The notes under the pieces are model-generated. The model did not search any database. It saw only the letters and a program-made list of their open reading frames with translations, and was not told the origin of the DNA. A stretch of DNA of 46,872 nt, taken from positions 1 to 46,872 of the forward strand of contig JBBIJQ010000008.1 in assembly GCA_037445915.1 (NCBI GenBank), written 5' to 3'. Both the position numbers and the translations under genes were made by a program. This DNA is from Planctomycetales bacterium (lineage in GTDB: Bacteria > 4484-113). Below are positions 20,054-46,872 of this stretch, piece after piece (within the stretch, counting starts at the first letter, position 1; every line of letters begins with the position of its first letter).

Positions 20054-20314
20054 ATGGAACTCGATCTAATTCAGGACTACGTCGTCATTAAAGCCATAGA
20101 GAGCGGCGTAAGCGTCGCTGGCCTGACGAGAGGCGAGGAAACCAAGTTTCTGCACTCCGAGAAATTGGAGCGCGGGGAAGTCCTTATCGCCCAGTTCACT
20201 GCGCATGTCTCGGTTATGAAGGTTCGTGGGCACGCCCGCATTTGGACGCAGTTCGGCGAAGTTGACGCTGAAAGCGACATTGAACTGCACCACCGCCCGC
20301 TGCCCCGGCTGTAG
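20054..20314 (+). CDS. mtrB: trp RNA-binding attenuation protein (TRAP) homologue
   Basis: [61 protein letters not shown] aligns almost gap-free, at roughly 60% identity from memory, with Bacillus subtilis MtrB ([61 protein letters not shown]). AAGGAG precedes the ATG. Confidence 0.85.
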   Translation: [86 protein letters not shown]

Positions 20315-20317
20315 CGG

Positions 20318-20728
20318 ATGCACGAGTATAGCCTGGCCTGCTTGATAGCTGAGATTTGCCAAGAGAGCGCTCAGGCGAATCGGCTTGTGGCAATCCACCG
20401 GGTGACGATGGCTGTCGGGCCGCTGGCTGCGGTTAGCCACGAGACACTCGCATTCCTCTTCGGCGAGGTCGCGGAACAACACGGTCTGGGCCGCCCTGAG
20501 CTAATATTCTCCCACAAGCCGCTGGCCATCAAGTGCAACGCTTGCGGTAACGAGGCCGCGCTGGAACCGCCGCAGGAAGGCTTCTGCGAGCCTTGGCACA
20601 ACCCTGGCGGCGCGCAAATCCCCTGGGAATGCCCGGAATGCGGCTCGCGGGAAGTGGAACACCCCGATGCGGCCATTTTCGCGGTAGAATCACTGGAAGG
20701 AGAACAACAAGATGCTGCTGGCGATTGA
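20318..20728 (+). CDS. hypA: HypA/HybF-like Ni-metallochaperone
   Basis: N-terminal MHEYSL (the MHE Ni-binding motif) and zinc site CNAC...CPECG, with an insertion between the two CxxC pairs. Confidence 0.75.
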   Translation: MHEYSLACLIAEICQESAQANRLVAIHRVTMAVGPLAAVSHETLAFLFGEVAEQHGLGRPELIFSHKPLAIKCNACGNEAALEPPQEGFCEPWHNPGGAQIPWECPECGSREVEHPDAAIFAVESLEGEQQDAAGD

Positions 20729-21893: not shown

Positions 21894-23513
21894 TTAGGAC
21901 GAGGCCTTCTTCTTCGTGGAAATGGCTCCGGCCATGAGCTTCTCAATCTCGTCCTTGTCGGCATCCATGATATACGGAATGCCGCTGATTTCAGCGGCCT
22001 GCGGTGTGAGCGCGGCGAGGTCGTCGCGGGTCATGTGCTCAAGGCTGAATCGGCGGCTGCCAGCCATTAGTTGCCGCAAGCCTTGCCCGAGGCGTTCGTA
22101 GTAGGTGTATAGGCCAAGCGCGCCGGTCGGCACTTTCTCAAACTCCTCGTCGCCAAGCTGGTGGCGCAGCTCGGCTGCAGTGACGAAGATTTCGTCTTTG
22201 GTGTTGCCAAAACGCTCAATGTAAACAGGAACCTGCTGCTCGTCAATCGTGCGGCCGATGGTCTTGCCGACCATTGCGGCGGCGATAGGGCTCCGCGCCA
22301 TGCCGATAAGCTTCACAAACGGCGCGCCAATGGCGAGTCCCTTGAATATCTGGTCTTCAAAGGTGAATCCGCCGGCGAGCGCCAGCGCAGGGACATGCGC
22401 CCCGCTGTCGGACAGCCGCTTGGCAAGCAGGTAGAGCATGGAGTGCAGCTCAACCGGCGGGACGCCCCATTCGTTCATCATGCGCCAGGGGCTCATGCCG
22501 GTGCCGCCGCCTGCTGCGTCAACCGTAAGCAGGTCAATGCCGTATTTGGAAGCAAAAACCAGCGCGCGCGCGAGGTCGGCGGGACGGTATGCGCCGGTCT
22601 TGAGGAATATGTATTTCGCGCCGGCCTTCCGCAGCTCTTCGGTGCGCTGGGCGAAGCTCTCTTCAGTAACCATTCCAACCCGCGAGTGGCGTTCAAATTC
22701 CTTGAATGTGCCGCGCTCAAACGAGCGGATGACATTGGGGTCAGTCGGGTTGGGCAGGACGATGTAGCCGCGCTCGTAGAGCATCTGCGCCTTCTTGAGG
22801 CTGCGGATTTTTACTTCGCCGCCGATGTCCTTCGCGCCCTGGCCCCATTTCATCTCAACGACTTCCGCGCCGAGTTTCTCAATCGCGTATTCCTGCACGC
22901 TGAGGCGGGTATCTTCAATGTTGGCTTGGACGACTATGGCGCCGTAGCCGTCGCGCTGGTTGTCCTTAAACAAGTTGACGCGGCGCTTTAGGTCAACGGT
23001 GTCCACCACGCGCCCGTCCTTAATAACGACTTCGGGATCCATCCCAACAACGTTTTCGCCGATTGTGAGGCCGGTGCCGGCAAGCGCGGTGCCGATGGCG
23101 AGCCCTTCCCAGTTGTTCTTGGCGATATCGGTTGAGCCGATGCCGGGGATAATCCACGGCAACCGGAACTTGAGGCCATTGTCGTGGCCGAAGCGCACTT
23201 CCAGGTTCACCGCGGGGAAGATTGCTTTGTTGCTGTCGGCTTCAACGCCGTGCGCGCCGACGCAGGTGCCCATGATGTTGAAATGGGAATAATCAACGGG
23301 GTAGGCCTTTTCTGACGCGGTTGTGATGACGCCGAAAGGCTGCGGGTAGATTACTTCGTGGCCTCGGTATGCGGACTTGCCGATCTCGCACATGCCGATG
23401 CAGCCGTCAACGCATGTGACGCACATCCCTGAGTTGGGAGTCACCGAGCCCTCGGTGCGGTTCTTGGTCAGCGTCGCCGCCGAAGAGTTAACCCTTGAGA
23501 ACGTGATTGGCAT
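21894..23513 (-). CDS. FMN-binding glutamate-synthase-family protein (GltB domain-2-like, stand-alone)
   Basis: Glu_synthase TIM-barrel signatures (...LTVDAAGGGTGMSPW..., LALAGGF). It has an N-terminal Cys cluster, CVTCVDGCIGMCE, rather than the canonical internal 3Fe-4S Cys motif. GGAGG precedes the ATG. Confidence 0.85.
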   Translation of the reverse strand: MPITFSRVNSSAATLTKNRTEGSVTPNSGMCVTCVDGCIGMCEIGKSAYRGHEVIYPQPFGVITTASEKAYPVDYSHFNIMGTCVGAHGVEADSNKAIFPAVNLEVRFGHDNGLKFRLPWIIPGIGSTDIAKNNWEGLAIGTALAGTGLTIGENVVGMDPEVVIKDGRVVDTVDLKRRVNLFKDNQRDGYGAIVVQANIEDTRLSVQEYAIEKLGAEVVEMKWGQGAKDIGGEVKIRSLKKAQMLYERGYIVLPNPTDPNVIRSFERGTFKEFERHSRVGMVTEESFAQRTEELRKAGAKYIFLKTGAYRPADLARALVFASKYGIDLLTVDAAGGGTGMSPWRMMNEWGVPPVELHSMLYLLAKRLSDSGAHVPALALAGGFTFEDQIFKGLAIGAPFVKLIGMARSPIAAAMVGKTIGRTIDEQQVPVYIERFGNTKDEIFVTAAELRHQLGDEEFEKVPTGALGLYTYYERLGQGLRQLMAGSRRFSLEHMTRDDLAALTPQAAEISGIPYIMDADKDEIEKLMAGAISTKKKASS

Positions 23514-23547
23514 TACAGTATCCCTCCAGAATTTCCTTTCGTTAGTC

Positions 23548-24219
23548 CTACTTTATTTCGCAAGCGACGCACGGTTGCATGTAGCACATCATGTCGTCGA
23601 ATTGTTCCTTCTCAACGCACGGAGGCGTAAGGTTTGCGCACCCGCCGCATATCACCTTTTCGGGGTCGGAGTAGGTGCAGCGCAGCTGGCATGCGGGGCA
23701 GACATATATGCACCCGCCGCAAAGCCGGCAAACCTCCGACTTGATGTCAAAGGGAGTGCCCAGCGCCCGCTTCTCGCCGCGCGCGCTGAAGCCGATGGCC
23801 TTCGCCACCATTTGTTCTTCGCACATGCGCACGCAAAGCCCACAGAGGATGCAGTCCTCATGCTCCTGGCGGAAGCGCTGCTGCATGATTTGGTGCGCCG
23901 AGGCGAGGTCTTGGATGACCTTGCTCTGCGGACAGCTAGCCAGTAGCAGTTCTAGCACCATCTTGCGCGCGCGCAAGACGCGGTTGGTTGCGGTGCGCAC
24001 CTTTATGCCTTCCTCGGCCGGGTAGGTGCAGGATGAAACAAGCTTCGCGCGCGTCCCTTCTCCGATTTCCACCACGCAAAGCCTGCATGCGCCGTATGGC
24101 GAAAGGCCTTCCATGTGGCAAAGCGTGGGGATGGGGAAGCCCAGGAACTGCGCGGCTTCAAGTATCGTCGTGCCTTTCTCAACGCTCACTTGAAGGCCGT
24201 TTATCGTCAGGGTAATCAT
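23548..24219 (-). CDS. 2Fe-2S plus poly-4Fe-4S ferredoxin-like protein (NuoG/HydA N-terminal type)
   Basis: MITLTINGLQVSVEKGTTILEAA...CHMEGLSPYGACRLCVVEI (Fer2_4 type), then CILCGLCVRMC and CRLCGGCIYVCP clusters plus a Cys-rich tail. The ATG at 24219 overlaps the upstream stop (ATGA) and follows GAGGTG. Confidence 0.8.
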   Translation of the reverse strand: MITLTINGLQVSVEKGTTILEAAQFLGFPIPTLCHMEGLSPYGACRLCVVEIGEGTRAKLVSSCTYPAEEGIKVRTATNRVLRARKMVLELLLASCPQSKVIQDLASAHQIMQQRFRQEHEDCILCGLCVRMCEEQMVAKAIGFSARGEKRALGTPFDIKSEVCRLCGGCIYVCPACQLRCTYSDPEKVICGGCANLTPPCVEKEQFDDMMCYMQPCVACEIK

Positions 24220-27200
24220 GCTTCTTTCACCTCGCGCGCGGCGCACTCAGCTAGGTGCTGCGTGAAATCAAGGTCGCAGCGAAGGCATCGCCGCGCTTCA
24301 AGCAAGGCATCCTTCACTTCAAGCGTTAGCTCAACCTCGTCAAACGAGCCGTGCCGTTTCTCCACCGGGATAGACGGCGGCTTGGCGCGCCTGCTGGCTG
24401 CCAGCGCGACATCATCAAGCACTAGGGGCTCAATGTAGTGCTCGGGCAAGCGTGGGGATGCAGGTTGCACCAGGTTTTCGCCGCGCAAATAGCGCGCAAT
24501 CATGACAGCCGCCTTCTTGCCCGCGGCGATTGCTTCAACGACCGTGTTCGGGCCGGTGACGACGTCGCCGCCGGCGAATACGCCTGGCCTGCTCGTTTCC
24601 AGCGTATCGGGATTAACATTCAGGCCCCCGCCCTTCGTGACGGCAATGCCCATGCTTTCAATGAACTCAATATCGGGTGTGTCGCCGATGGTCACGATGA
24701 GCGTGTCCAGCTTGGCGACGAACTCGCTGCCTTCAGCCGGCACAGGCTTGCGCCTGCCGCTTGCGTCAACTTCGCCTTCAACGTTACGGATGAACTCCGC
24801 GCCGAGGAGCTTGCCGCTCTCGGAAAGGATGCGCACAGGCGATACCATCGTTTCCAGCGTAATGCCTTCGTGCAGCGCTTCTTCAACTTCTTCGGGCAGC
24901 GCGGGCATCTCCTGCTTCGTGCGGCGGTAGAAAATCGTGACGCTTTCAACTTCGGGCTGGCGTAGCGCGACGCGCGCGGCGTCAACCGCCGAGTCGCCGC
25001 CGCCGATGACGCCTACATGGCCTTTCGCAAGCACTTCGCCTCTCAGGTTGAACGCCTTAAGGAAGCGCAGCGCGGGATGAACGCCCGCTAGGTCTTCGCC
25101 TTCAATGTTGAGCAGGCGGCTCTTGTGCGCGCCCATCGCCAGGAAGACGGCCTTATAGCCCTCATTGAACAGGCGGTCAAGGCTGATGTCTTTGCCAAGC
25201 GCCGTGCCGCACTTAAGCTCAACGTTATCGTCAACCAGCGATTGGATTTCCCTGCTTATCGTCTCGCGCGGTAACCGGTAGGCGGGAATGCCGGTTGTGA
25301 GCATACCGCCGGGGCGGTCGTCAGCCTCAAGAACAGTGACTTTATAGCCGTAGCGCGAGAGGTAATGCGCCGCGCTGAGTCCCGCGGGCCCTGCGCCGAT
25401 TACAGCAACCCTATCATCATGCCTCTCCTGAGAGTATTGCGGCTTGAAGATGGAAGGGTTGGTGCGGTCGGTGACGAAACGCTTGAGGGCGCGGATAGCG
25501 ATAGGCGCGAAACCGGTTTGGCCGCTGCGGCATTTGTATTCGCAGGGATGGCTGCACACGCGCGCGCACACCGACGGGAACGGGTTGTATTCGCGGATGG
25601 CGCGGTATGCGTCTTCGTATTCGCCCTTGGCGATGTGTGCGATATAGCGCCAGGCTTCCGTGCCCAGCGGGCATGCGCTCTGGCATGGCGCGCCAACAAG
25701 GTCGGGACAGACGAACGCGTCGCAGCGCTTATTGATAATGTGCTGTTCAAATTCGCCGCGAAAGTAACGCAGCGAGCTAAGGACAGGATTGGGCGCAGAC
25801 TGCCCAAGGCCGCACATGGTCGTATCTTTCACGGTCAGCGCAAGCTCCTGGAGCAGGTCAAGGTGCATAAGCGTTCCCTTGCCGCGCGATATATCGTCCA
25901 GCAGCTCCCACATGCGCTGCGTGCCCTTGCGGCAGGTGAAGCACTTGCCGCAAGACTCGTCTTTCAGGAAGCTCATATAGTATTTGGCGACGTCCACGAT
26001 ACAGGTCGTCTCGTCCATCACGATCATGCCGCCGGAGCCCATGATTGAGCCGGCGTTGCTGAGCGTGTCGTAGTCAACCTTTAGGTCAAACTGGTCGGCG
26101 GGAATGCAGCCGCCGGAAGGCCCGCCGGTCTGGACGGCCTTAATCCTCTCATTGCGCAGCGGGCCTCCGCCGATATCATAGACAATCTCGCGGATGCTGA
26201 TGCCCATCGGGACTTCTACCAGGCCGGTGTTTTGTATCTTGCCGACGAGGCTGAATATCTTGGTGCCGGAATTGTTGGGGGTGCCGACTTTGGCGAACTC
26301 CTCCGCGCCGGCTTCAATAACGAGCGGGATATTCGCCCAGGTTTCTACATTATTAATGGCTGTCGGCAGCCCGTTGATGCCACGCTGCACTGGAAACGGC
26401 GGCCTCTGGCGCGGCTCGCCCATCTTGCCTTCAATGGAGCGGATGAGAGCAGTCTCTTCGCCGCAGACAAACGCGCCCGCGCCGCGCACTATCTCCATTT
26501 CAAAGCTGAACCCGCTGCCAAGTATGTTTTTGCCTAACAACCCCAGTTCCTGCGCTTGGGTGATGGCAATAGTAAGGTGCTTGATGGCAAGCGGGTATTC
26601 GTTGCGGACATATATGACGCCCTTGGTCGCGCCGGTGGCAAAAGCGCCGATGAGTATCCCCTCAATGATGCAGTGGGGGTTGCCTTCCAGCAACGCGCGG
26701 TCCATATACGCGCCGGGGTCTCCCTCATCGGCGTTGCAGACGAGGTATTTGCCTTTGGACCCGTCTTGCGCCGCCAGAAGTTCCCATTTCACGCCAGTGG
26801 GGAAACCTCCTCCGCCGCGCCCGCGCAATCCCGAAGCCTTCACTTCGCCGACGGTCCACGCGGGATCGCCTTTCCCTAGGGTCTTTACGAAAGGGGCATA
26901 GCCGCCGTTCTCTATGTAGTGGTAAATGCGGATAGGGTCAACCTTTTCATTGCGCCCAAGGATGCTGCGCACTTGCTTTTTATAGAACGGAAGGTCCCTT
27001 TGATTCTCAATCGGCTTGCCGCTGCGGGGCTCAATGTAGAGTAAGTTGCGTAAAACGTTGCCGCTGGCCACGGCGGTAACGATGCGCGCCATGTCTTCCG
27101 GCGACACGCGCGGGTAGAACGTGCCATGCGGCTCAACGAGCACAGAAGGTTCGGTCTCGCAGTAGCCGTGGCAGCCGGTAACGCGAAGCTCAACGCGCCC

Positions 27201-27401
27201 GATAAGGTTGCGCTGGAGAAGCTCCCGCTTAGTCACGCGGATGAGGTCGTTGGCCCCGCTGGCCTGGCCGCATGTCCCTGCAGAAATGACAATCGTGGGA
27301 ATGCCCCTTGGGCGGCCGGCAATGAGGCGCTCTTGCAAGGTTTTGAAAGCAGCGATAGTGTTTAGGTTCTCCATCTGGGATTCCCGTTCTGCCCCCCGCA
27401 T
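24216..27401 (-). CDS. NuoF/HydB-like NADH-FMN subunit fused to a GltD/NfnB-like FAD/NAD(P)H oxidoreductase (1061 aa)
   Basis: N-terminal Trx-like 2Fe-2S (SAGTCGQASG...VTGCHGYCE). FMN/NADH site GLRGRGGGGFPTGVKW and CNADEGDPGAYMDR, and N3 cluster ESCGKCFTCR...CGLGQS. GltD part: CQSACPLG...VCARVCSHPCEYKC, VAVIGAGPAGLSAAHYL and VGVIGGGDSAVDAA. The start could alternatively be the ATG at 27374. Confidence 0.88.
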   Translation of the reverse strand: MRGAERESQMENLNTIAAFKTLQERLIAGRPRGIPTIVISAGTCGQASGANDLIRVTKRELLQRNLIGRVELRVTGCHGYCETEPSVLVEPHGTFYPRVSPEDMARIVTAVASGNVLRNLLYIEPRSGKPIENQRDLPFYKKQVRSILGRNEKVDPIRIYHYIENGGYAPFVKTLGKGDPAWTVGEVKASGLRGRGGGGFPTGVKWELLAAQDGSKGKYLVCNADEGDPGAYMDRALLEGNPHCIIEGILIGAFATGATKGVIYVRNEYPLAIKHLTIAITQAQELGLLGKNILGSGFSFEMEIVRGAGAFVCGEETALIRSIEGKMGEPRQRPPFPVQRGINGLPTAINNVETWANIPLVIEAGAEEFAKVGTPNNSGTKIFSLVGKIQNTGLVEVPMGISIREIVYDIGGGPLRNERIKAVQTGGPSGGCIPADQFDLKVDYDTLSNAGSIMGSGGMIVMDETTCIVDVAKYYMSFLKDESCGKCFTCRKGTQRMWELLDDISRGKGTLMHLDLLQELALTVKDTTMCGLGQSAPNPVLSSLRYFRGEFEQHIINKRCDAFVCPDLVGAPCQSACPLGTEAWRYIAHIAKGEYEDAYRAIREYNPFPSVCARVCSHPCEYKCRSGQTGFAPIAIRALKRFVTDRTNPSIFKPQYSQERHDDRVAVIGAGPAGLSAAHYLSRYGYKVTVLEADDRPGGMLTTGIPAYRLPRETISREIQSLVDDNVELKCGTALGKDISLDRLFNEGYKAVFLAMGAHKSRLLNIEGEDLAGVHPALRFLKAFNLRGEVLAKGHVGVIGGGDSAVDAARVALRQPEVESVTIFYRRTKQEMPALPEEVEEALHEGITLETMVSPVRILSESGKLLGAEFIRNVEGEVDASGRRKPVPAEGSEFVAKLDTLIVTIGDTPDIEFIESMGIAVTKGGGLNVNPDTLETSRPGVFAGGDVVTGPNTVVEAIAAGKKAAVMIARYLRGENLVQPASPRLPEHYIEPLVLDDVALAASRRAKPPSIPVEKRHGSFDEVELTLEVKDALLEARRCLRCDLDFTQHLAECAAREVKEA

Positions 27402-27435
27402 AGCGGGAGCAGGAAGTTCTTGGGATTGGCAGCGC

Positions 27436-28284
27436 TCAGAAATTGACGCCGCTTAGGTCAAGCATGTGCCCTCTGCATCCCCGGCGGGTGCAAATATGCA
27501 CCATTCCACCGCCACGCACAGACATCGGCAGCATCGGAGCGCCGCAGTCATTACAGCGGGCCGCGCCAAGGGCCTCGCCGTGGCAGTGTGGGCAAAAGAA
27601 ATGGACTACCGTATCCTCCGGTATTGCGTGCTCTGACGAGATGTTGTAGCTGCCATACAGGCTGGAGAGGCAAACCCACCCGTGCTTGTCGCCGAATGTA
27701 GCTGTAACGCGGATTGACGGGTGGCCATCCAAGAGATGGTTGTGATCCATCAAGCTGCGGTTGCACTTCGGGCAAGCCGCATCCAACGGGATGATGCAGT
27801 GGTCTGCGTCAGCTTCGGCAAAGTCAAGCCCTGCGCGGGCTTTCCCCAGGATTTCGCGGACATTGGACTTTTCCATCTTGGAGAAGTAATGGCCGTCAAT
27901 AGTCGCGATTGGCCCCAGCGCGCAAGCGCCAAGGCAGTTCACCGTCTCAAAGGAGAATTCCTTGTCGGGAGTAGTCTCGCCCGAAACAATGCCCAGTTGG
28001 CGCTCAAACTCCTTAGCCACGCCAGCCCCGCCGCGCACATGGCAGGCTGTGCCCAGGCACGCAGACACTAAGTGCTTCCCCCGGGGCTTGAGGCTAAATG
28101 AGCGGTAGAAAGTTGCTACGCCATAAATATCCACCAGCGAGCGGCCGGTGGTTTCGGCGACCTTGCGCAGCGCGTCGGCCGGAAGGTAGTTGTACTTGGC
28201 CTGCACTCTTTCAAGGATGGCGATAAGGCCGTCCTGGGCGTCTGGATTCAGCTCAAGCGCGGCAATGATTGCGTCAGGTTCCAC
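27436..28284 (-). CDS. NuoE/HydC-like 2Fe-2S subunit with a roughly 115-aa Cys/His-rich C-terminal extension
   Basis: The core ...VATFYRSFSLKPRGKHLVSACLGTACHVRG...VNCLGACALGP carries the four 2Fe-2S Cys. The extension has CPKC...CPHC..C.DCG...ICTRRGCRGH, which looks like zinc ribbons. GTG start after GGAG. Confidence 0.85.
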   Translation of the reverse strand: MEPDAIIAALELNPDAQDGLIAILERVQAKYNYLPADALRKVAETTGRSLVDIYGVATFYRSFSLKPRGKHLVSACLGTACHVRGGAGVAKEFERQLGIVSGETTPDKEFSFETVNCLGACALGPIATIDGHYFSKMEKSNVREILGKARAGLDFAEADADHCIIPLDAACPKCNRSLMDHNHLLDGHPSIRVTATFGDKHGWVCLSSLYGSYNISSEHAIPEDTVVHFFCPHCHGEALGAARCNDCGAPMLPMSVRGGGMVHICTRRGCRGHMLDLSGVNF

Positions 28285-28329
28285 TAATAATCTCCAGTTT
28301 GGGGTAAGGCGCAGGTCGCTGTGTGCGGC

Positions 28330-28635
28330 TTACTGGTACTGCTCGCAATACCAAACGCCCCGGGGCGACTCGTGAGCGCAGTTGCCGTGGTAATCGCAGT
28401 TCCCGCACAAGCCTTTGGTAGCGCCGTTGCCGTTGGGCGAAGCTTCAGCGGGCGCGACAGCCCGTCCGGGCTCGTGTGAAAGCGGGCCGTGGTCGTCAAA
28501 CATGTCGCAATACATCACGTCTCCGCCGGCAGCCTTGCGGTTGCAGCAGGTCTCGGCGTGGTTGCAGGTAGCGCAAAGCCCGGAGTAAGCGGGGATTGCT
28601 GTGATTTCCTTAATAGTTGTAGTAGTCGTTGCCAT
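28330..28635 (-). CDS. small Cys-rich protein (101 aa) with an internal duplication; first gene of the lower redox operon
   Basis: MATTTTTIKE...GLCATCNHAETCC...VMYCDMF....GLCGNCDYHGNCAH...VWYCEQYQ. The ATG at 28635 lies 8 nt after GGAGGA. The track ORF is extended upstream artificially. Confidence 0.6.
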   Translation of the reverse strand: MATTTTTIKEITAIPAYSGLCATCNHAETCCNRKAAGGDVMYCDMFDDHGPLSHEPGRAVAPAEASPNGNGATKGLCGNCDYHGNCAHESPRGVWYCEQYQ

Positions 28636-28894: not shown

Positions 28895-29560
28895 TCAGGG
28901 ATCCAAGCAGGTCAACCCTTCGCGGATTGCATACTTTGTTAGCTCGGCAACGCTCCGTAACTCAAGCTTGTCCTTTATCCTGCGCCGGTGCGCCTCAATA
29001 GTCTTCACGCACACGCCGAAAACTTGTGCGATATCTTTTGTGCTCCTGCCTTCCGCAAGCAGGCGGAGCACCTCGCGCTCCCGTTCGGTGAGTAAGCAGG
29101 GTGACGGTGCCTGGGCAGGTGACAGGTGGCGGACATAGCTTTCAACGACTGTGTCGGCAATGCCCGGGCTGAAGAAGGTTAGGTTCGCACCCACTGCGCG
29201 GATGGCGCGCGCGAGATCTTCTTGCGCGCAGTCTTTAAGTAGGTACCCCGTCGCGCCGGCGCGTAGCATCTCCATAACATACTGCCCGTCAGCGTGCATT
29301 GAAAGCCCCACTACGCGGGTTGAGGGTATCTCTGTGCGAATCTGCCTTGTCGCCTGAATCCCATTCAAGCGCGGCATCCCGATGTCCATTACTACAACAT
29401 CAGGCTTCATCTCCAGCGCGATTTGGACTGCCATCTGCCCGTCAGCAGCTTCGCCGATAACGAGCATGTCCGGTTGGAGGTTAATGAGCGTGCGCAAGCC
29501 GTCGCGGAGGATCTTGTGGTCATCCACTACTACAACGCCGATTGTTGGGCCATCTTGCAT
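28895..29560 (-). CDS. NarL/FixJ-type response regulator (REC + LuxR HTH)
   Basis: REC domain (VVVDDH...VVVMDIGMP..., phospho-Asp context) and a C-terminal LTEREREVLRLLAEGRSTKDIA...VKTIEAHRRRI LuxR-type HTH. Confidence 0.9.
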   Translation of the reverse strand: MQDGPTIGVVVVDDHKILRDGLRTLINLQPDMLVIGEAADGQMAVQIALEMKPDVVVMDIGMPRLNGIQATRQIRTEIPSTRVVGLSMHADGQYVMEMLRAGATGYLLKDCAQEDLARAIRAVGANLTFFSPGIADTVVESYVRHLSPAQAPSPCLLTEREREVLRLLAEGRSTKDIAQVFGVCVKTIEAHRRRIKDKLELRSVAELTKYAIREGLTCLDP

Positions 29561-29697
29561 AGGAAAAGCAGTAGTTCCAATGCGAAACCAAGCGTGCCAA
29601 ATACACCTACATTTTGCCGCCGTTGGTGAGTTTGCGCAATCAGGAATTCCCTTACAGGGAATGCAAGGCGCGCCGGGCGCGCATGGGAAATTGGAAC

Positions 29698-31530
29698 TCA
29701 GGAATCCAGCCCGGTCAGCCCTTCGCGGATTGCGTACTTAGTTAGCTCCGCAACGCTGTGGATTCCCAGTTTCTCCATTATGTGCTGGCGGTGGGTCTCC
29801 ACAGTCTTCACGCTTATTTGAAGGTGCAGCGCGATTTCTTTCGTGTTCCGCCCTTCGGTAAGCATTTGCAGCACTTCGCGCTCGCGATTGGTTAGCGATG
29901 ATGTGGTAGAGGTGCTGTCGCCTTGCTGGCGGGCAAAATCCTCAACGACAGCGTCTGCGATGCCTGGGCTGAGGAATGTCAGGTTCGCGTCAACCGTCCT
30001 AATGGCCCGGGCAAGGTCTTCCTGCGCGCAGTCCTTGAGCAGATATCCTGAAGCGCCTGCCCGCAGCATCTCAAGGACGAACTGCCCATCGGAATGCATA
30101 GAAAGCGCGACAACCTTTACGCCCTGTATCTTGCCTACAATCTGCCGCGTTGCCTCAATGCCATTTAGCCCTCTCATAGCGATATCCATGACGACAACAT
30201 CTGGGGTCAGCTCGCGCGAAAGCTGAATAGCCTCGCGGCCGTCGCGCGCCTCAGCAACGACATCCATGTCTGCGTGCTTTTCCAACAACGCGCGCAGCCC
30301 TTCGCGCGTTATCTGCTGGTCGTCTGCAAGCAGTATCCTCACTTTCCGAACTGAACCGTTTTCGTTCTGCGCATGCTCGGCGCGAAGGCCTCCCGCAAGT
30401 TGTGCCTCCTCCAACATCAGCGGCGCGGCCAGAGTGATACTCGTCCCATGCCCGAACTCGGAGAGTATCTCTAGCTTGCCGCCAAGGTGGTTCAAGCGCT
30501 CGCTGATGCTAAAAAGCCCGAAGCCGCCGGCCTTGTTTCGGCGAGCGCGGACTTCTGAAAAGTCAAATCCAACGCCGTCGTCTTCTACAACAATCTTTAT
30601 CTGCTCCCCAGCGCGCTTCACAAACACTTCAACCTTCTTCGCCTGAGCGTGTTTGATGATATTCGCTAGAAGCTCGCGCACTGCCTGAAAGAGCACGATG
30701 CGCGTGTCCTCGGCCAGAGGTTTGGGCCGCCTGTCCATGGTCAACTCAGCATTGATGCCGTGATCTTCTGCGAGCTGATTAACAAGCCACTCCAACGCCG
30801 ATTCAAAACCTAGCTCGTGGAGAACGGGAGGGCTTAGCTCAAACGTAAGCGAGCGCGCATCTTGAATCGTCTGGTCCATCAGGCTGAGCACTTCATCCAA
30901 GCCGCATTCTGAGCAGTTTTCCCTCAATCCCGCAAGCTTCACTTTGGCGATAGCAAGGCCGTGCCCGATTCGGTCATGCAGATCAACGGCGATTCGGCGC
31001 CGTTCGCGCTCTTCCGTAAGCGCCAGTTCCGAAGCAAGGGATCGCAACTTCGCCTGGTATTCCAAGACTTTGGCGTCAGCGCGCTCGTGTTCCACTATCC
31101 GCCCGACTCGTTCGGCAATGGCTTCAAGCAGCCTTCGCTCTTCGTGCAGGAATGGGGGCTCTGCAACCCCTGGCTTCACTTTCAGGTAACACACTTCAGC
31201 CATGCCTATATGCTGCCCGGACGCGAATATCTCAACAGCCTGCTTCCACTTTGTCTCGCGGAAGTTCGCTGTCTGGTATGACTTGCCTTCAAGCACGATG
31301 CGGGCGCAGGTGATATCCGGGTATTGGTAGCTGGGCGGTATTAAGTTTACAACGCCGCGTATCACAGTATCCAGGGATGCGTCTTTCTGATCGCGTATGT
31401 TGGCTATGGCATAAAGGCAATTAAGTTCCTTGATGCGCTCATTTAGCTCGTGCATCTTTAAGCGAAGCTTTTCCTCAGTGGACGGCCTTGGACGGCCCTT
31501 CGGTTCCTTGTTTTCCTTCTTTGTAGCCAT
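29698..31530 (-). CDS. hybrid one-polypeptide two-component protein: sensor module, HisKA_3 kinase, HATPase, REC and LuxR HTH
   Basis: H-box RRRIAVDLHDRIGHGL, the ATPase G-boxes VEDDGVGFD and GGFGLFSISER, then REC (ILLADDQ...VVVMDIAM) and LTNREREVLQMLTEGRNTKEIA...VKTVETHRQHI. Confidence 0.88.
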   Translation of the reverse strand: MATKKENKEPKGRPRPSTEEKLRLKMHELNERIKELNCLYAIANIRDQKDASLDTVIRGVVNLIPPSYQYPDITCARIVLEGKSYQTANFRETKWKQAVEIFASGQHIGMAEVCYLKVKPGVAEPPFLHEERRLLEAIAERVGRIVEHERADAKVLEYQAKLRSLASELALTEERERRRIAVDLHDRIGHGLAIAKVKLAGLRENCSECGLDEVLSLMDQTIQDARSLTFELSPPVLHELGFESALEWLVNQLAEDHGINAELTMDRRPKPLAEDTRIVLFQAVRELLANIIKHAQAKKVEVFVKRAGEQIKIVVEDDGVGFDFSEVRARRNKAGGFGLFSISERLNHLGGKLEILSEFGHGTSITLAAPLMLEEAQLAGGLRAEHAQNENGSVRKVRILLADDQQITREGLRALLEKHADMDVVAEARDGREAIQLSRELTPDVVVMDIAMRGLNGIEATRQIVGKIQGVKVVALSMHSDGQFVLEMLRAGASGYLLKDCAQEDLARAIRTVDANLTFLSPGIADAVVEDFARQQGDSTSTTSSLTNREREVLQMLTEGRNTKEIALHLQISVKTVETHRQHIMEKLGIHSVAELTKYAIREGLTGLDS

Positions 31531-31556: not shown

Positions 31557-32918
31557 CTACCCCTGCCCATTCCCAACAAACGCTTTTACCTCGGCAATGC
31601 TGATGCCAAGGGCTTTGGCAGCCATTTCGTAATCCCTATCAAAGTAATCCAGGACTTTCGTGACGTGTTCGCGCTCAATATCCTCAAGGCTGCGCGGCTT
31701 GAAGCCTGAATCATGCTGCGCGACGCCTGATGCAGCGTCCCTAATGTGCTGAGGAAGCGAGTCAGCAGTGATGGTGCCGCCGCTCTCGCTCACAACCGCG
31801 CTGGCGATAATGTTGCGCATCTCCTGCCGGTTGCCGGGAAAGCTGTAGGCTTTGAGAGTTTCAATGAACCCGGGGTCAACGCCGACAAGGCTGATACCGG
31901 CCTTTGCGGCTTCCTTCTCCAGGTAATACGCTGCAAGCAGCGGGATGTCTTCAACGCGGTCGCGAAGCGGCGGAAGCTGCAGCGAGTTGACCATCAAGTG
32001 GTAAAGCAAGTCGCGCGAAAAAGTGTAGCGGTAATCCTCGCTGGTGAGGTCGTGCCGCGAGGCGGCGATAATCCGCACGTCCAGCTTGAGTATTTGCGTG
32101 GAACACTCGCGGTAGAACTCGCCTGTTTGGATAAACCGCTTGAGGCGCACCTGTACCGGCAGCGTGAGCCGGTCAATCTCGTCAAGGAACAGTGTTCCGC
32201 CGGAAGCCTGTTCCAAGAATCCCGGCTGGTCTTCCCGGGAGCCGCTATAGTCGCGCGCCTGCCCGAAGATGGCTGCGGCGAGCTGCTCGCTATTAATCGC
32301 GGCGGCGTCAACCGCGACGAATGGCTCATTGCTGCGCGGGCTGGCGTCATGTATAGCGTGGGCAAGCATCTCCTTGCCGGTTCCGCGCTCACCCCAGATA
32401 AAGATGTCCAAGTCGCCTGCCGCCATTTTCTCCGCCTTGTGCAGTATGCGAATGAGTTCAGGGTCCTGCGTCGGGAAGTGCACAAACGCCTCGGCGAACT
32501 CCAGGTCTTCGCGCGACAGCCCCGCCGGCATCTGGCTGATGGTGTGGTGCGTGGTTTGGTGCGCGATGGCGCTGGCGAAGACTTCAAGCAAATAGCTGTC
32601 GTCTACCGGCTTCGTCAGATAGTCAAACGCGCCAAGCTTCATTGCCTTAACAGCAAGGTCAACATCACTCACGCCGGTAAGGACGATAACCGGCGTGGAA
32701 ATGCGCCGGTCCTTAACCAACTTGAGCACGTCCATTCCGCTGATGTTGGGCATGTCCATGTCAAGGAGCAGCGCGTCAAAATGTTCCCGCTCCAGCAGTT
32801 CCGAAATAGCCCGCGAGTCGTTTACAACTGTCGGTTCGTACTTGCCCGTCTGCATCAGGAAGACCATCAGGTAGTTGGTCACCGCAACATCGTCGTCAGC
32901 AATCAATACTTTTCGCAT
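31557..32918 (-). CDS. NtrC-family response regulator (REC, AAA+ sigma-54-interaction-type domain, Fis-type HTH) with a degenerate GAFTGA loop
   Basis: MRKVLIADDD...LLLDMDMP (REC), Walker A GERGTGKE and Walker B TLFLDEID. RDYSGS (nt 32238-32255) sits where GAFTGA is expected. C-terminal HTH MAAKALGISIAEV. The track start at 32933 is a GTG, and I prefer the ATG at 32918. Confidence 0.88.
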   Translation of the reverse strand: MRKVLIADDDVAVTNYLMVFLMQTGKYEPTVVNDSRAISELLEREHFDALLLDMDMPNISGMDVLKLVKDRRISTPVIVLTGVSDVDLAVKAMKLGAFDYLTKPVDDSYLLEVFASAIAHQTTHHTISQMPAGLSREDLEFAEAFVHFPTQDPELIRILHKAEKMAAGDLDIFIWGERGTGKEMLAHAIHDASPRSNEPFVAVDAAAINSEQLAAAIFGQARDYSGSREDQPGFLEQASGGTLFLDEIDRLTLPVQVRLKRFIQTGEFYRECSTQILKLDVRIIAASRHDLTSEDYRYTFSRDLLYHLMVNSLQLPPLRDRVEDIPLLAAYYLEKEAAKAGISLVGVDPGFIETLKAYSFPGNRQEMRNIIASAVVSESGGTITADSLPQHIRDAASGVAQHDSGFKPRSLEDIEREHVTKVLDYFDRDYEMAAKALGISIAEVKAFVGNGQG

Positions 32919-32932
32919 GCCCCCAAATTCCA

Positions 32933-34957
32933 CTATGAATGCCCCCCTATCGCCGGCGTTTCAGTGTGGTCATCCTCGTCTTCAGCCGCCGCCTTCTTCT
33001 TAATCGGCAGCCTAATGAGAAAAGTCGTGCCTGCTCCCGGCTTGCTTACAATGGTTATCTTTCCGCCGTGCTCTTCAATGATGCGGTAGGCAATGGCCAG
33101 CCCTAGGCCCGTGCCGCCCTTCGCGCGGCGCGTAGTAAAGAACGGCTCAAAGATGTGCTTCAGCGTCTCTTCCGTCATCCCTTTGCCGTTGTCTGAGACT
33201 TCAATTGAAAGCGTTGAGTTCTCAGCGCGCGTCTTCACCCGGACAAGCCCTCGCCTGTCGTCAGGCATAGCCTGGCCCGCGTTAATTAGCAAATTGATGA
33301 GGACCTGTTCCAGCTTCTGCGAGTTGCCGGTAAAGCTCGGGACATCCGGCGCGAGGTCAAGCTCAATGTCTGCGTTTTTGTGCACCTGGTTGTGGACTAG
33401 GCGCGCGCTGGCGTCAACGATTGTGTTGATATCCACAGTGTCAATGAGCAATCCCTCGTCCCGGCGGGCGAAACGCTTCAGCCCCTCCACGATTCCCTTG
33501 ATGCGCTCGGAGCCGTGTCCCATGTCGTTGACGAGGGTTCCGACATGCTCGCGGAAAAATCCGTAGTGCAGTCGCGCAATCTTCAGGTCGGGATGTTCCT
33601 TGTAGTATTCGTCCAATATGGGGATGATGTCCTCAAGGGCCTGCTTTATTATCTTGATGTTCCCGCGTATGAACTGGTTCGGGTTGTTGATCTCATGCCC
33701 GATGCCGCTAACGAGCTGTCCCAGCGAGGCTAGTTTGTCCGCCTGTTGGAGCTGCTGCTCGTAAGTCTTCTCCATCGTTATGTCGCGGTAGAACTCAATA
33801 ATACCTTCAACTTCATGCTTCTGGTTGAAAATAGGGAGGGCATGCACTTCGAAGTAGCTGTCCTCATGCTTAATCTCAAGCGTGATCGGGGCTTTCTCGC
33901 GGACGACACGCATAAGGCGGCAGTCCGGGCACGGCGTTTCCGAGTTGAAGACAGTGCGGTAGCACTTGTCGCCCGGCAGGACGGTCTCGCGGTTGGTCAT
34001 CACCACATTGCGCTTCAGGTCTATCAGCGCGACGCGGTCGGGTATCGCCTGAAACATCGTTTCCAGGCGCACCTTTGATTCCTCCCAGTCATGCTGGACG
34101 CGCGCAATGTATTCGTTAACGCGTTCCAGCTTCACGCGCTGGTCGTCAAGCTCCTTGGTGCGGTTCTCAATAACTGTTTCCAGTTCCGCAAGTTTGCGCC
34201 TGTACTCCGCTTCCTCTTCCTGCTTAAGTGCCAGGCGCTCGGTAAGCTCTTTGCGCTCCAGCGCGAGGCTAAGCATGCGCGCGATCTCGTTGAGCATCCT
34301 TTGCTCTTCGGGCAGCAGCTCAAATTCCTCGCTTATGTAGCCCACGCGCAGTTCGCCTGCAACCTGCCCGCTTACCTCAAGAACAGCGCGGATGATGTCT
34401 TCTGAAGCAGGCTTCTGGCCGTACTCAACGCCCTGGTAAAGTGAATAAATTACTGCGTGTTCGGGGTAGTGCATTCCCCGGCTGAGGTAAGTTGGAAGCT
34501 CGGTAAAAAACTCCTTGATTGAGACGGATGTATCAATCCAGTCTGCAACCGCATAAACGCAGGAAAGCTCTTTGATGCGCTCAATCTTTTCCCACTCTGA
34601 GAGCATGCTCAAGCCTTCTGCCTGCACGCCGTAGAAGAGGAATAGCCCGCCCTCTTCGTCTTCAGCATAGCCGACTTTAAGGGGAATTACCCGTGAGTTG
34701 CCGCCCTTCACGGAAAAGCCAACGGTGCCCTTGCGCCCCTTTCGGACTTCAACCATTGCCAAGCGGAAACCCTCAAGAGACTCCGGCGTTAGAATGTCTT
34801 CCAGGCGGCGCTTGACAACCGATTTTTGGCTTAGCCCGGATTCACTAATGAGTAGTCGGCTTGCGTGACTTACCCTCCCCTCGCGGTCGGCCACGAGCAG
34901 GTATTCAAAGCTGCTTTCAAACAAGTTAAAGAGGTATTCCAGCCTAATGGCTCCCAC
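32933..34957 (-). CDS. sensor histidine kinase (PAS/GAF-type sensor modules, HisKA, HATPase)
   Basis: H-box LVSGIGHEINNPNQFI, N/G boxes NLLINAGQA, DNGKGM and GGTGLGLAIAYRI, and a Cys motif CYRTVFNSETPCPDCRL in a PAS-like module. GTG start. Confidence 0.9.
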   Translation of the reverse strand: MGAIRLEYLFNLFESSFEYLLVADREGRVSHASRLLISESGLSQKSVVKRRLEDILTPESLEGFRLAMVEVRKGRKGTVGFSVKGGNSRVIPLKVGYAEDEEGGLFLFYGVQAEGLSMLSEWEKIERIKELSCVYAVADWIDTSVSIKEFFTELPTYLSRGMHYPEHAVIYSLYQGVEYGQKPASEDIIRAVLEVSGQVAGELRVGYISEEFELLPEEQRMLNEIARMLSLALERKELTERLALKQEEEAEYRRKLAELETVIENRTKELDDQRVKLERVNEYIARVQHDWEESKVRLETMFQAIPDRVALIDLKRNVVMTNRETVLPGDKCYRTVFNSETPCPDCRLMRVVREKAPITLEIKHEDSYFEVHALPIFNQKHEVEGIIEFYRDITMEKTYEQQLQQADKLASLGQLVSGIGHEINNPNQFIRGNIKIIKQALEDIIPILDEYYKEHPDLKIARLHYGFFREHVGTLVNDMGHGSERIKGIVEGLKRFARRDEGLLIDTVDINTIVDASARLVHNQVHKNADIELDLAPDVPSFTGNSQKLEQVLINLLINAGQAMPDDRRGLVRVKTRAENSTLSIEVSDNGKGMTEETLKHIFEPFFTTRRAKGGTGLGLAIAYRIIEEHGGKITIVSKPGAGTTFLIRLPIKKKAAAEDEDDHTETPAIGGHS

Positions 34958-38718: not shown

Positions 38719-38727
38719 CAGTATTCC

Positions 38728-40500: not shown

Positions 40501-40544
40501 CAATCATCTCCGAAGAAGAGTAGGAGCGCATCATTGCGCAGGCG

Positions 40545-41039
40545 CTAGCCCGCGACCCCCGCTTCCGTGGGCTTCTTTGCCTTGCGGCGCACCCCGCGCA
40601 GAATCTTGCGCACCGCCGCGGGCGACAGCTTCCCATGCGTGTCTTCGTCAATCATTATCACCGGCGAAAGCGAGCAGCAGCCGATGCAGGCGACGGTGAA
40701 CAGCGTGAACAGCCCGTCTTCGCTTGTGCCTCCGACTTCAATCGCCAGCTCGTCTTGGATGGTTTCCACGATGAGCCGCGCACCGTTGACATGGCATGCA
40801 GTCCCGACGCAGGCGCGGATAACGTGCTTACCCATCGGCTGGAGGCGGAATTGGCTGTAGAATGTGATAACGCCGTAAACGGCGGATTCGGGTATGTTCG
40901 TCACCGCCGAGATATATTTGATGGCACGGCGTGGAATGTATCCGAAGTAGTTCTGCGCCGACTGGAGCAACGGTATCAGCTCGCCGGGAGCGCCGTCGTA
41001 GCGCCAGAGCCTGTAGTTGAAATCAGGTTCGTTCGTCAT
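40545..41039 (-). CDS. NuoE/HydC-like 2Fe-2S subunit
   Basis: LIPLLQSAQNYFGYIP...VITFYSQFRLQPMGKHVIRACVGTACHVNG...VACIGCCSLSPV carries the four conserved Cys. Confidence 0.9.
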   Translation of the reverse strand: MTNEPDFNYRLWRYDGAPGELIPLLQSAQNYFGYIPRRAIKYISAVTNIPESAVYGVITFYSQFRLQPMGKHVIRACVGTACHVNGARLIVETIQDELAIEVGGTSEDGLFTLFTVACIGCCSLSPVIMIDEDTHGKLSPAAVRKILRGVRRKAKKPTEAGVAG

Positions 41040-42296: not shown

Positions 42297-42369
42297 GCGC
42301 CCGTAGCTTAACGGATAGAGCAGCGGACTTCGGATCCGCCGGTTGGGGGTTCGAATCCCTCCGGGCGCG
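42297..42369 (+). tRNA. tRNA-Arg (anticodon UCG)
   Basis: Hand-folded cloverleaf. Acceptor GCGCCCG pairs with CGGGCGC. D-arm is GCTT-AACGGATA-GAGC. Anticodon stem GCGGA/TCCGC carries loop CT-TCG-GA. There is a 5-nt variable loop, and the T-arm is GGGGG-TTCGAAT-CCCTC. Discriminator G, and CCA is not encoded. Confidence 0.9.
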
Positions 42370-46800: not shown

Positions 46801-46872
46801 TGCCCGAATAAGTCCAAGCTCTTCATCGCTAATAGTGGGAAGGGAAAAAAGAGGGGGGATATCCTAAGATAG

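Follow-up and report, generated by a model that had tools for sequence, protein, structure and literature searches.

Contig JBBIJQ010000008.1 of the Planctomycetales bacterium assembly GCA_037445915.1, analysed here from position 1 to position 46,872 (46,872 nucleotides; hereafter the window), carries on its minus strand an operon of five closely spaced genes (Table 1) whose products probably connect glutamate/2-oxoglutarate chemistry with NADH, NADPH, or ferredoxin in anaerobes that have not been cultured. The genes encode a small Cys-rich protein, a NuoE-like subunit, a fusion of NuoF with GltD, a small iron-sulfur (Fe-S) subunit, and a homolog of the flavin mononucleotide (FMN) barrel of glutamate synthase (GltS). 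An initial annotation of the window had proposed these genes in this order, and all five open reading frames (ORFs) lie where it had placed them, on the minus strand. It had also described the Fe-S gene as coupled to its neighbor through an ATGA, and the ATG at 24219 indeed overlaps the TGA of the NuoF::GltD gene (gcATGAtt). This start yields a protein of 223 residues instead of the 232-residue ORF that begins with GTG, in agreement with the public gene call. For the fusion, the public gene call uses the alternative start M10 at 27374, which gives 1052 residues. The operon is taken to end at 21894 because the downstream tsaD gene is convergent. We compared the locus with 80 related loci (L008-L087), fetched with up to 9 kb of flanking sequence. 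The order [small Cys protein]-NuoE-B-BfuA-barrel is invariant in all 80 wherever the contig reaches, which argues that the arrangement did not arise by chance.

Table 1. The operon, its subunit genes and other genes discussed in the window, with the basis of each assignment
Feature	Coordinates	Strand	Basis
Whole operon, five genes	28635-21894	minus	closely spaced ORFs
Small Cys-rich protein, 101 aa, first gene	28330..28635	-	ATG with GGAGGA ribosome-binding site
BfuC/HydC/NuoE-like subunit, 282 aa	27436..28284	-	Pfam 2Fe-2S_thioredx, PDB relatives
BfuB-like NuoF::GltD fusion, 1061 aa	24216..27401	-	Pfam and NCBIfam domain matches, PDB relatives
Minimal BfuA/HoxU-like Fe-S subunit, 223 aa	23548..24219	-	Pfam Fer2_4 and Fer4_7
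GltS-alpha-type FMN barrel homolog, 539 aa, catalytic candidate	21894..23513	-	Pfam PF01645, Foldseek
LuxR-type response regulator	28895-29560	-	ORF translation only
Hybrid kinase/receiver/LuxR protein	29698-31530	-	Pfam
Sigma-54-dependent response regulator	31557-32933	-	Pfam
Histidine kinase (PAS, HATPase)	32933-34957	-	Pfam
Fer2_4 + GltD + Fer4_Nqo3 + molybdopterin-like subunit, 1228 aa	35032-38718	-	domain layout
BfuB with C-terminal 2x[4Fe-4S] domain, 591 aa	38728-40503	-	Pfam
NuoE-like protein of a second Bfu-type operon, 164 aa	40545-41039	-	Pfam

The electron-input subunits are predicted to form a Bfu core

The Bfu family is defined by a conserved BfuBC core, which includes a His/Cys site that is absent from non-bifurcating NuoF homologs (PMC9304861). 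On sequence grounds we assign the electron-input module of the operon to this family as a HydABC-type core, which is more specific than a generic NuoEF assignment, because each of the three input subunits has a Bfu chain as its closest relative of known structure. The NuoE-like C subunit (Pfam 2Fe-2S_thioredx, 150.7 bits) is closest to the HydC/BfuC chains 8a6t_C, 7t2r_C, 7p5h_C, and 9n5u_C, while the fusion is closest to the true BfuB chains 7t2r_B (1e-194), 7q4v_B, 9mqx_B, and 8a6t_B and to the NfnB chain 9n5u_B. The BfuA-like subunit (Pfam Fer2_4, 64 bits, plus Fer4_7) best matches 9mqx_A, a 247-residue 'NuoG-like' chain (1.2e-38, residues 8-199), and also matches the N terminus of HydA1 (8a6t_A); NCBIfam models for HoxU, NuoG, and the FeFe-hydrogenase N terminus match it below their cut-offs. 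In this predicted module NADH would be handled at the NuoF-type FMN, and the NuoE-type [2Fe-2S] and the [4Fe-4S] would constitute the 'flavobicluster'.

Two of these subunits carry extra cysteines that have no counterpart in solved Bfu structures. In the C subunit, the predicted ligands of the C1 [2Fe-2S] cluster (C76-x4-C81 and C117-x3-C121) are invariant in 10 orthologs, as are all eight cysteines of a C-terminal extension of ~125 residues (27436-27820) that contains four CxxC pairs. The pairs are Zn-ribbon- or rubredoxin-like in appearance. This extension is missing in three of the loci with the short B form described below (L056, L068, and L078). In the BfuA-like subunit, a [2Fe-2S] cluster is predicted at C43, C54, C57, and C73 (numbering of the 232-residue ORF), followed by two CxxCxxCxxxC motifs; this protein shows no evident counterpart of the His-ligated cluster motif of NuoG/HydA. 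After the second ferredoxin motif comes a family-specific tail (23548-23700) with eight more invariant cysteines. Orthologs of the BfuA-like subunit are present in 77 of the 80 loci at 74-88% identity, with the cysteine pattern of the tail conserved.

The B subunit is a NuoF-GltD fusion, as the initial annotation had stated, with Complex1_51K (157.9 bits), NADH_4Fe-4S (107.7), Fer4_20 (80.5), and Pyr_redox_2 (121.3) matched by Pfam within one protein. NCBIfam gltA/GltD models match it below their cut-offs, and its GltD part matches NfnA/StnC-type chains in the PDB. The domains are ordered as a putative thioredoxin-like domain (C44, C77, C81), the NuoF FMN/NADH domain, cluster B1 (predicted [4Fe-4S] ligands C484, C487, C490, and C530), the His/Cys site, the GltD module, and a C-terminal tail with 'EARRCLRCD'. 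The N-terminal match to 2Fe-2S_thioredx (residues 30-110) is weak, its 21.8 bits falling short of the 24.8 cut-off, with only three cysteines visible, and the alignments of the fusion to PDB sequences begin at residue 34-39 of the BfuB chains. In the A. mobile enzyme the His/Cys site consists of H525, C531, C536, and C438 (PMC9304861). The B subunit of the window has H554, C560, C565, and C467 at equivalent offsets, with a serine at position 505, the equivalent of C476/Thr, and H-x5-C-x4-C is conserved in orthologs with either form of B.

A ferredoxin-like domain normally follows the His/Cys site in BfuB, and in characterized Bfu enzymes it provides the low-potential exit to ferredoxin. In NfnABC, the low-potential route runs from C1 to clusters B3/B4 and on to ferredoxin, and the B3/B4 domain is part of the ferredoxin docking site (PMC12018979). 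This C-terminal domain with its B3 and B4 [4Fe-4S] clusters is absent from the B subunit of the window, which continues from C565 straight into a GltD module in its place. The module retains C573-x3-C577-P, C612-x3-C-x3-C-x3-C624, the flavin adenine dinucleotide (FAD) and NADPH Rossmann motifs, and the NADPH-type 'YRR'; the YRR and C-x3-C-x3-C-x3-C motifs are conserved across orthologs. At its junction with the NuoF part, the module lacks the first C-x2-C of the canonical 'EAxRCLxC..P.C...CP' motif. The tail 'EARRCLRCD', which corresponds to the first half of this GltD cluster motif, instead stands at the extreme C terminus of the protein (EARRCLRCDLEFT; 24216-24386, residues about 1005-1061) and is conserved in all 45 long-B orthologs inspected among L008-L087. 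When the tail is joined to the junction, the sequence aligns over the full length of the E. coli GltD cluster domain with a score of 84, compared with 67 without the tail. The GltD module therefore appears to be circularly permuted, with both GltD clusters kept and C560 and C565 left to the Bfu site, and we infer that the tail cysteines ligate a cluster.

The first gene of the operon encodes a protein of two repeats of GLC-x2-C-x5-C-x9-13-CE[EQ][FY], a pattern kept in its orthologs, which occupy the same position in 40 of the 80 loci. It has no match in Pfam or NCBIfam and is likely a metal or Fe-S protein.

The barrel protein is predicted to be a remote, stand-alone relative of GltS

The only Pfam match of the 539-residue protein is to PF01645 (Glu_synthase), with 42.9 bits against a gathering score of 20.4, and it covers residues 281-402 and profile positions 185-303 of 369. 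NCBIfam gave no match and PDB sequences no meaningful one, and a profile built from 18 family members reaches the A. brasilense GltS only at E=0.005. An hhalign comparison with the FMN domain of E. coli GltB aligned residues 321-413 with 77% probability, pairing 'DAAGGGTGMSP' with E. coli 'YDGGTGASP' and 'GMARSPIAAA' with 'GFGTGPMVAL'. Directly after 'GFGTGPMVAL', E. coli GltB has GCKYLRICHLNNC, which contains the 3Fe-4S ligands; the barrel protein instead reads MVGKTIGR. The C-x5-C-x4-C motif for a [3Fe-4S] cluster after strand beta8 is thus absent, the aligned region GMARSPIAAAMVGKTIGR containing no cysteine, and a cysteine occurs within 20 residues after GMAR in only one of 56 distinct ortholog motifs.

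Of the five cysteines in the protein, the only conserved ones form the N-terminal motif C31-x2-C34-x3-C38-x3-C42; the fifth, at position 84, is not conserved. Among 81 orthologs, 77 have CVTCVDGCIGMC, either exactly (66) or with one residue changed and every cysteine intact, and the four cysteines are at least 90% conserved even in relatives at 30-55% identity. The two Fe-S features of the barrel that the initial annotation had singled out, the missing internal 3Fe-4S motif and an N-terminal cluster motif, are thus both borne out by the alignments, the cluster itself being a prediction.

An AlphaFold2 model (predicted local distance difference test score, pLDDT, 82.6) is a (beta/alpha)8 barrel. 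Its best Foldseek match in the PDB is the Synechocystis ferredoxin-dependent GltS (Fd-GltS) 1ofd (E=1.8e-9, 16% identity), with glycolate and lactate oxidases and IDI-2 barely behind. In the model, 'WGQGAK' follows strand beta4, like 'VAQGAK' in GltS (a correspondence mapped by hand), and strand beta6 reads 'VDAAGGGTG', with the GGTG motif of GltS; of 81 orthologs, 80 keep these QGAK and GGTG motifs. Run globally or at low stringency, hhalign gave meaningless alignments with GltS over the QGAK region. Because such forced hidden Markov model alignments were uninformative, the active site was mapped manually. Among the residues that we take to serve catalysis and 2-oxoglutarate binding in GltS (Q969, K972, Q978, R992, and E903, Synechocystis numbering), the hand-anchored candidate equivalents are E233 for Q978, so that this residue is not kept, R248 for R992, and a variable position for E903. 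The combined comparisons identify the protein as a remote member of the PF01645 superfamily and, by prediction, a stand-alone and divergent GltS-type barrel.

Membership in the alpha-hydroxy-acid oxidase family (PF01070) was also considered. This family has a catalytic His/Arg motif on strand beta6. The barrel protein lacks that motif and has no Pfam FMN_dh match, its structural resemblance to these enzymes does not extend beyond the fold, and the assignment was rejected.

The operon lacks the other domains of glutamate synthase

The initial annotation had noted that only the FMN barrel and GltD-like parts of a glutamate synthase (GOGAT) are present. Neither the window nor any of 87 loci, each with up to 9-10 kb of flank, gave a tblastn match to the amidotransferase, central, FMN, or GXGXG parts of E. 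coli GltB; the 64 matches obtained with GltD all came from the fusion genes and one other. According to Pfam, the 539-residue protein has neither a PurF-type amidotransferase domain nor a C-terminal GXGXG domain, and the remaining large ORFs of the window, which encode chaperones, proteases, a cytochrome, a FolP-like protein, and cell-envelope proteins, include no GltB1 or GltB3. That part of the annotation therefore holds for the window and the related loci, and its reading stands on both points by which it had proposed to check it: no adjacent amidotransferase or GXGXG domains were found in the 80 related loci with their flanks of up to 9 kb, and no 3Fe-4S ligands emerged from a proper alignment. 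By its predicted domain content, the complex is not a canonical GOGAT.

The operon is widespread and occurs with two forms of B

The barrel protein has at least 8000 homologous 90%-clusters, the best 120 of which are 81-100% identical to it. Clustering at 50% leaves 1083 representatives at E<=1e-3, about fifteen of them full length; the family is narrow and under strong constraint. With one genome surveyed per GTDB species, at least 589 species carry the operon, at 78-84% identity, and all of the carriers are metagenome-assembled genomes (MAGs). Among them are members of Zixibacteria, Planctomycetota, Ignavibacteria, Bacteroidota, Acidobacteriota, Latescibacterota, Coatesbacteria, Verrucomicrobiota, and Myxococcota, as well as Smithella and Desulfobacterota-like MAGs; those from Planctomycetota are Phycisphaerae, Pirellulales, Planctomycetales, and the anammox bacterium Ca. 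Scalindua rubra. In the source databases the barrel protein carries no annotation beyond 'FMN-binding glutamate synthase family protein' or 'glutamate synthase domain-containing protein 2'. For the distant stand-alone relatives P0121, P0122, P0124, P0126, and P0131, contigs were short or neighboring genes unrelated.

Across the loci, the NuoF part is 67-78% identical to its counterpart in the window, GltD 55-71%, and the NuoE core 56-73%; taken together, conservation between phyla spans 55-88%. The long NuoF::GltD form of B is encoded in 58 loci. Another 15 loci encode a short form of 616 residues with an ordinary 2x[4Fe-4S] ferredoxin-like domain, and each of 14 short-B orthologs inspected has two CxxCxxCxxxC motifs. 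The degree of conservation of the barrel protein does not differ between the long and the short B.

Regulators and glutamate dehydrogenase genes recur next to the operon

The histidine kinase and the sigma-54-dependent response regulator at 31557-34957 are probably a cognate regulatory pair, and a GAF or PAS histidine kinase with a sigma-54 response regulator is found upstream of the operon in 42 related loci. In the window, a LuxR-type pair (28895-31530) sits between these conserved regulators and the operon; it is specific to the window and not among the gene clusters that recur in the 80 loci. In 22 of 58 loci, a strict TGGYAY-N4-6-TTGC motif (-24/-12, for example TGGCACGATTATTGC) precedes the NuoE gene by 200-880 bp; our rough estimate from base frequencies would give ~0.02 per locus by chance. 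These motifs precede the small Cys-rich gene, consistent with the conserved sigma-54 regulator upstream. Upstream of 28635 in the window itself we found no convincing sigma-54 -24/-12 promoter. Scans for terminators and sigma-70 promoters did not rise above the shuffled background, and Rfam searches of the window and five loci returned tRNA and tmRNA only, with no riboswitch.

When the ORFs flanking the operon in the 80 loci were clustered, with operon genes and antisense shadow ORFs excluded, three families recurred in at least six loci: the kinase/sigma-54 pair, a PPDK_N-domain protein, and dehydrogenases of the ELFV type. Genes for ELFV-type glutamate dehydrogenase (GDH) are present in 11 loci (L009, L031, L034, L049, L051, L057, L060, L064, L068, L075, and L086; for example L009:10842-12203 and L064:4016-5041) from at least four phyla, among them Planctomycetota, Zixibacteria, Bacteroidota, and Coatesbacteria, and including Scalindua. 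They lie directly downstream on the same strand, in convergent orientation, or between the small gene and NuoE. The protein in L009 matches the NCBIfam model for NADP-specific glutamate dehydrogenase with 765 bits against a cut-off of 536, and the other ELFV neighbors match archaeal/GdhB-type GDH models best. About 14% of loci thus have a GDH gene no more than 9 kb away, compared with roughly 0.5% that we estimate for a single-copy gene by chance. A relative of the barrel protein that is fused to FrhB (P0267, 36% identical) is encoded immediately behind two GDH genes and a small ferredoxin gene, and a second contig, 77% identical, repeats this two-GDH arrangement (L090:2355-5585, L094:2889-5742). 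The recurrence of GDH links the family to glutamate/2-oxoglutarate, although it stops short of proving the substrate, and it favors 2-oxoglutarate, 2-iminoglutarate, or glutamate over an enoate. On the P0267-type contig there are, in addition, pylC/pylD-like genes and a LarA-like gene.

The PPDK_N neighbor is a protein of roughly 750-1100 residues found in 13 loci (for example L052:10633-13590, and others such as L014, L023, L029, L032, L057, L060, L063, L070, L071, L074, and L076), of which only the middle ATP-grasp part resembles phosphoenolpyruvate synthase or rifampicin phosphotransferase.

Farther upstream in the window, 7 kb from the operon, lies a second, canonical Bfu-type operon (35032-41039) that probably encodes an Stn/NfnABC transhydrogenase. 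It is not conserved beside the lower operon in other genomes. In domain order, the only feature compared, its 1228-residue protein resembles the StnC/NfnA-type chains 8oh5_C and 9bov_A.

A glutamine-independent 2-oxoglutarate/imine reductase is the favored interpretation

We propose that the operon encodes a soluble, multi-subunit flavin/Fe-S enzyme of the Bfu family in which a GltS-like 2-oxoglutarate/imine reductase, independent of glutamine, serves as the third-substrate module, an assignment that we consider reasonably likely. The separate, divergent barrel homolog would take the place of the usual catalytic module, be it hydrogenase, formate dehydrogenase, tungsten aldehyde oxidoreductase, or NADP-FAD. 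Electrons would flow from B1 through the clusters of BfuA, including the extra clusters of its tail, and enter the barrel protein at its N-terminal cluster before they reach the barrel FMN, which would reduce the C=N (or C=O) bond of a 2-oxo or 2-imino acid. The favored reaction would be the conversion of 2-oxoglutarate and free NH4+ to glutamate via 2-iminoglutarate, or the reverse deamination, without glutamine. A second nucleotide or ferredoxin site would couple the reaction energetically, with NADP(H) used in long-B complexes and ferredoxin in short-B complexes, and expression would probably be under the control of the two-component sigma-54 system. The initial annotation had envisaged an NADH- and/or ferredoxin-linked reductase acting on an imine or an enoate. 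The subunit homologies agree with this predicted activity and add NADPH as a candidate. The imine survives as a substrate, with free ammonia and not ammonia derived from glutamine, and the GDH neighbors make the enoate the less likely option.

Energy coupling could take two forms. In confurcation, NADH and a low-potential donor would together drive very high-affinity, ATP-free ammonium assimilation. In bifurcation, which we think rather unlikely, NADH would be the donor, amination the high-potential branch, and ferredoxin or NADP+ the low-potential acceptor. Here, NADH would give a hydride to the NuoF FMN, from which one electron would run downhill via BfuA to the GltS-like barrel and drive glutamine-independent amination of 2-oxoglutarate, while the other would run uphill, to ferredoxin in short-B complexes or, as in the window, to NADP+ via the GltD module of the long B. 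Such an enzyme would represent a new class of flavin-based electron bifurcation on a Bfu core, with the organic substrate as the high-potential and not the mid-potential partner. In reverse, anaerobes would oxidize glutamate with NAD+, with ferredoxin or NADPH co-oxidized.

Several observations speak against the proposed reductase. Reductive amination of 2-oxoglutarate with NAD(P)H is already strongly exergonic, so that there is no obvious reason for a Bfu core. The involvement of ferredoxin in the window enzyme is uncertain, because its B subunit has no canonical B3/B4 domain. GDH is adjacent in only ~14% of loci, and this could reflect shared regulation. The match of the active site to that of GltS (K972, Q969, R992) is manual, the supported alignment being that of residues 281-413, and the position matched by hand to Glu903, which we take to mark the end of the GltS tunnel, is not conserved. 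Finally, every carrier is an uncultured MAG.

These observations leave some room for a generic NAD(P)H- or ferredoxin-linked reductase of another imine, enoate, or 2-oxo acid, with GDH nearby through co-regulation. The distance of the barrel from GltS (profile E=0.005, Foldseek scores nearly tied with other FMN barrels), the loss of the residues matched by hand to Glu903 and Gln978, the roughly 86% of loci with no GDH nearby, and the PPDK_N-domain protein as an equally frequent neighbor all fit such an enzyme. However, adjacency to GDH recurs in several phyla and in various gene orders, as well as in the FrhB-fused subfamily, the QGAK and GGTG motifs are almost universally kept, and the partner module, GltD, is the natural reductase of GltS, so that we regard a different substrate as improbable. 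We see still less reason to expect a confurcating 2-hydroxy-acid dehydrogenase for lactate or 2-hydroxyglutarate, analogous to Ldh-EtfAB, with NAD+ as acceptor and ferredoxin or NADPH as helper. The Foldseek scores for glycolate, lactate, and mandelate oxidases and flavocytochrome b2 nearly equal those for GltS, 2-hydroxyglutarate would suit a GDH neighbor, and a high-potential couple with a low-potential helper would suit a bifurcating core. Yet the window protein has no Pfam FMN_dh match, and its strand beta6 reads 'DAAGGGTGMSP' where the alpha-hydroxy-acid oxidase family carries a catalytic His/Arg motif.

Another, very improbable interpretation dispenses with an organic substrate and treats the complex as an Nfn/Stn-type transhydrogenase of NADH, ferredoxin, and NADP+ to which the barrel is merely accessory. 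The predicted NADH (NuoF) and NADPH (GltD) sites of the B subunit would permit this reaction, and the Stn/NfnABC-like operon in the window shows that the organism uses such chemistry. A second transhydrogenase beside that operon would, however, be redundant, short-B orthologs with no NADPH site keep the barrel at about 80% identity, and no other subunit is as well conserved as the barrel. In archaea and Thermotogae, split GOGATs are known in which GltB1, GltB2, and GltB3 are encoded by separate genes, and the barrel could in principle be one piece of such an enzyme, with its partner domains encoded elsewhere. We consider this highly unlikely given the empty tblastn searches of the window and 87 loci, the absence of the 3Fe-4S ligands, a PF01645 match that, unlike that of a genuine GltB2, covers only a third of the profile at 42.9 bits, and the variable residue at the hand-matched tunnel-end Glu.

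Comparison with known enzymes

Schut et al. (2022) classified the Bfu family, whose members include HydABC, NiFe-HydABCSL, WOR-Bfu, and Fdh-Bfu (PMC9304861). The modules listed there are for hydrogenase, formate dehydrogenase, NADP, F420, aldehyde, CO, pyruvate, benzoyl-CoA, quinone, and peroxide, with no glutamate synthase-like module among them (PMC9304861). The nearest class is 'Type 2', with a minimal BfuA and separate catalytic subunits (for example PDB 9MQX). Like these enzymes, the complex is predicted to have a NuoE-like C subunit with a [2Fe-2S] cluster, a NuoF-like B subunit with FMN, B1, the His/Cys site, and a putative thioredoxin-like N terminus, a small BfuA of about 225 residues with one [2Fe-2S] and two [4Fe-4S] clusters, and catalysis on an additional subunit. 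Unlike them, it has a GltS-like barrel, the 8-Cys tail of BfuA, the four-CxxC extension of NuoE, and, in the window, GltD where the B3/B4 domain of B would normally be.

NfnABC and StnABC (9N5U, 8OH5, 9BOV) also combine a BfuBC core with an NADPH module of the GltD/NfnL type that contains FAD and 2x[4Fe-4S]. Those enzymes, however, carry the GltD-like module as an insertion within BfuA, where it is part of the mid-potential path, and their BfuB still has the ferredoxin-like domain, whereas in the window GltD is at the C terminus of BfuB and an FMN barrel subunit is added. The pairing of a GltD-type module with a GltS-type barrel is shared with GltB/GltD (1EA0, 2VDC, 6S6S), and the QGAK and (D/G)GGTG motifs of the barrel with both GltB/GltD and Fd-GltS (1OFD). 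In contrast to GltS, the barrel protein, at ~16% identity, has no amidotransferase, central, or GXGXG domains and carries an N-terminal 4-Cys motif in place of the 3Fe-4S loop, GltD is apparently permuted and is fused to NuoF, and the complex gains NuoE-like and BfuA-like subunits.

FrhB-GltS fusions of methanogens and anaerobic methanotrophic archaea (ANME) have been discussed as putative F420-dependent glutamate synthases, FGltS (PMC9012536). These genomic predictions likewise have a GltS-type barrel that stands apart from the amidotransferase and draws its electrons from another input module, and the FrhB-fused P0267 belongs to the same narrow family as the window barrel and keeps its N-terminal Cys motif. 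FGltS differs in that its input is FrhB (F420 or ferredoxin) within one polypeptide, while that of the window complex is a predicted Bfu core. In dihydropyrimidine dehydrogenase/PreTA, a GltD-like NADPH module also feeds an FMN TIM barrel via [4Fe-4S] clusters, and by this route a C=C or C=N bond is reduced (PMC8097209). That barrel, however, is like dihydroorotate dehydrogenase and has C-terminal ferredoxin clusters, with no NuoEF or BfuA. The initial annotation had found no described enzyme with this combination. A search of the full-text literature on Bfu, Nfn-Bfu, Hydrogenedentota, Ignavibacterium, Thermonerobacter, Margulisbacteria, and Fe-S flavoenzymes likewise found no description of the operon, which is apparently an undescribed and very widespread variant of the Bfu family.

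Other genes in the window

The clpB gene is split into an ORF for 571 residues (4362-6077, minus strand), with Clp_N, AAA, and the start of AAA_2, and one for 238 residues (3649-4365, minus strand), with the rest of AAA_2 and ClpB_D2-small, which suggests a frameshift or an assembly error near 4362-4365. Just past the convergent tsaD gene, an 86-residue ORF (20054-20314, plus strand) has PF02081 (TrpBP, a TRAP-like tryptophan RNA-binding attenuator) in the public annotation and adjoins a lone hypA nickel-insertion gene (20318-20728, plus strand). A 516-residue ORF (14445-15995, plus strand) has a weak match to multihaem cytochrome c3-type proteins, and a tRNA gene lies at 42297-42369 (plus strand). 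The cytochrome and the tRNA suggest an anaerobic, possibly metal- or sulfur-respiring host and have no bearing on the operon.

Implications

Bfu enzymes are a main way in which anaerobes balance NADH, ferredoxin, and a third redox couple, and each new third substrate alters how the metabolism of whole lineages is read. The barrel module, 78-85% identical across these phyla, is among the most conserved proteins of our search and is known from MAGs only. The occurrence of short and long B with the same catalytic subunit provides a natural comparison, which could help to locate and probe the low-potential branch. If the bifurcation option were true, the operon would be an unrecognized and very common link from nitrogen and amino-acid metabolism to energy conservation in uncultured sediment bacteria. 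If the operon does encode a glutamine-independent, energy-coupled enzyme that forms or oxidizes glutamate, metabolic reconstructions of these phyla miss a central reaction of nitrogen assimilation or amino-acid fermentation.

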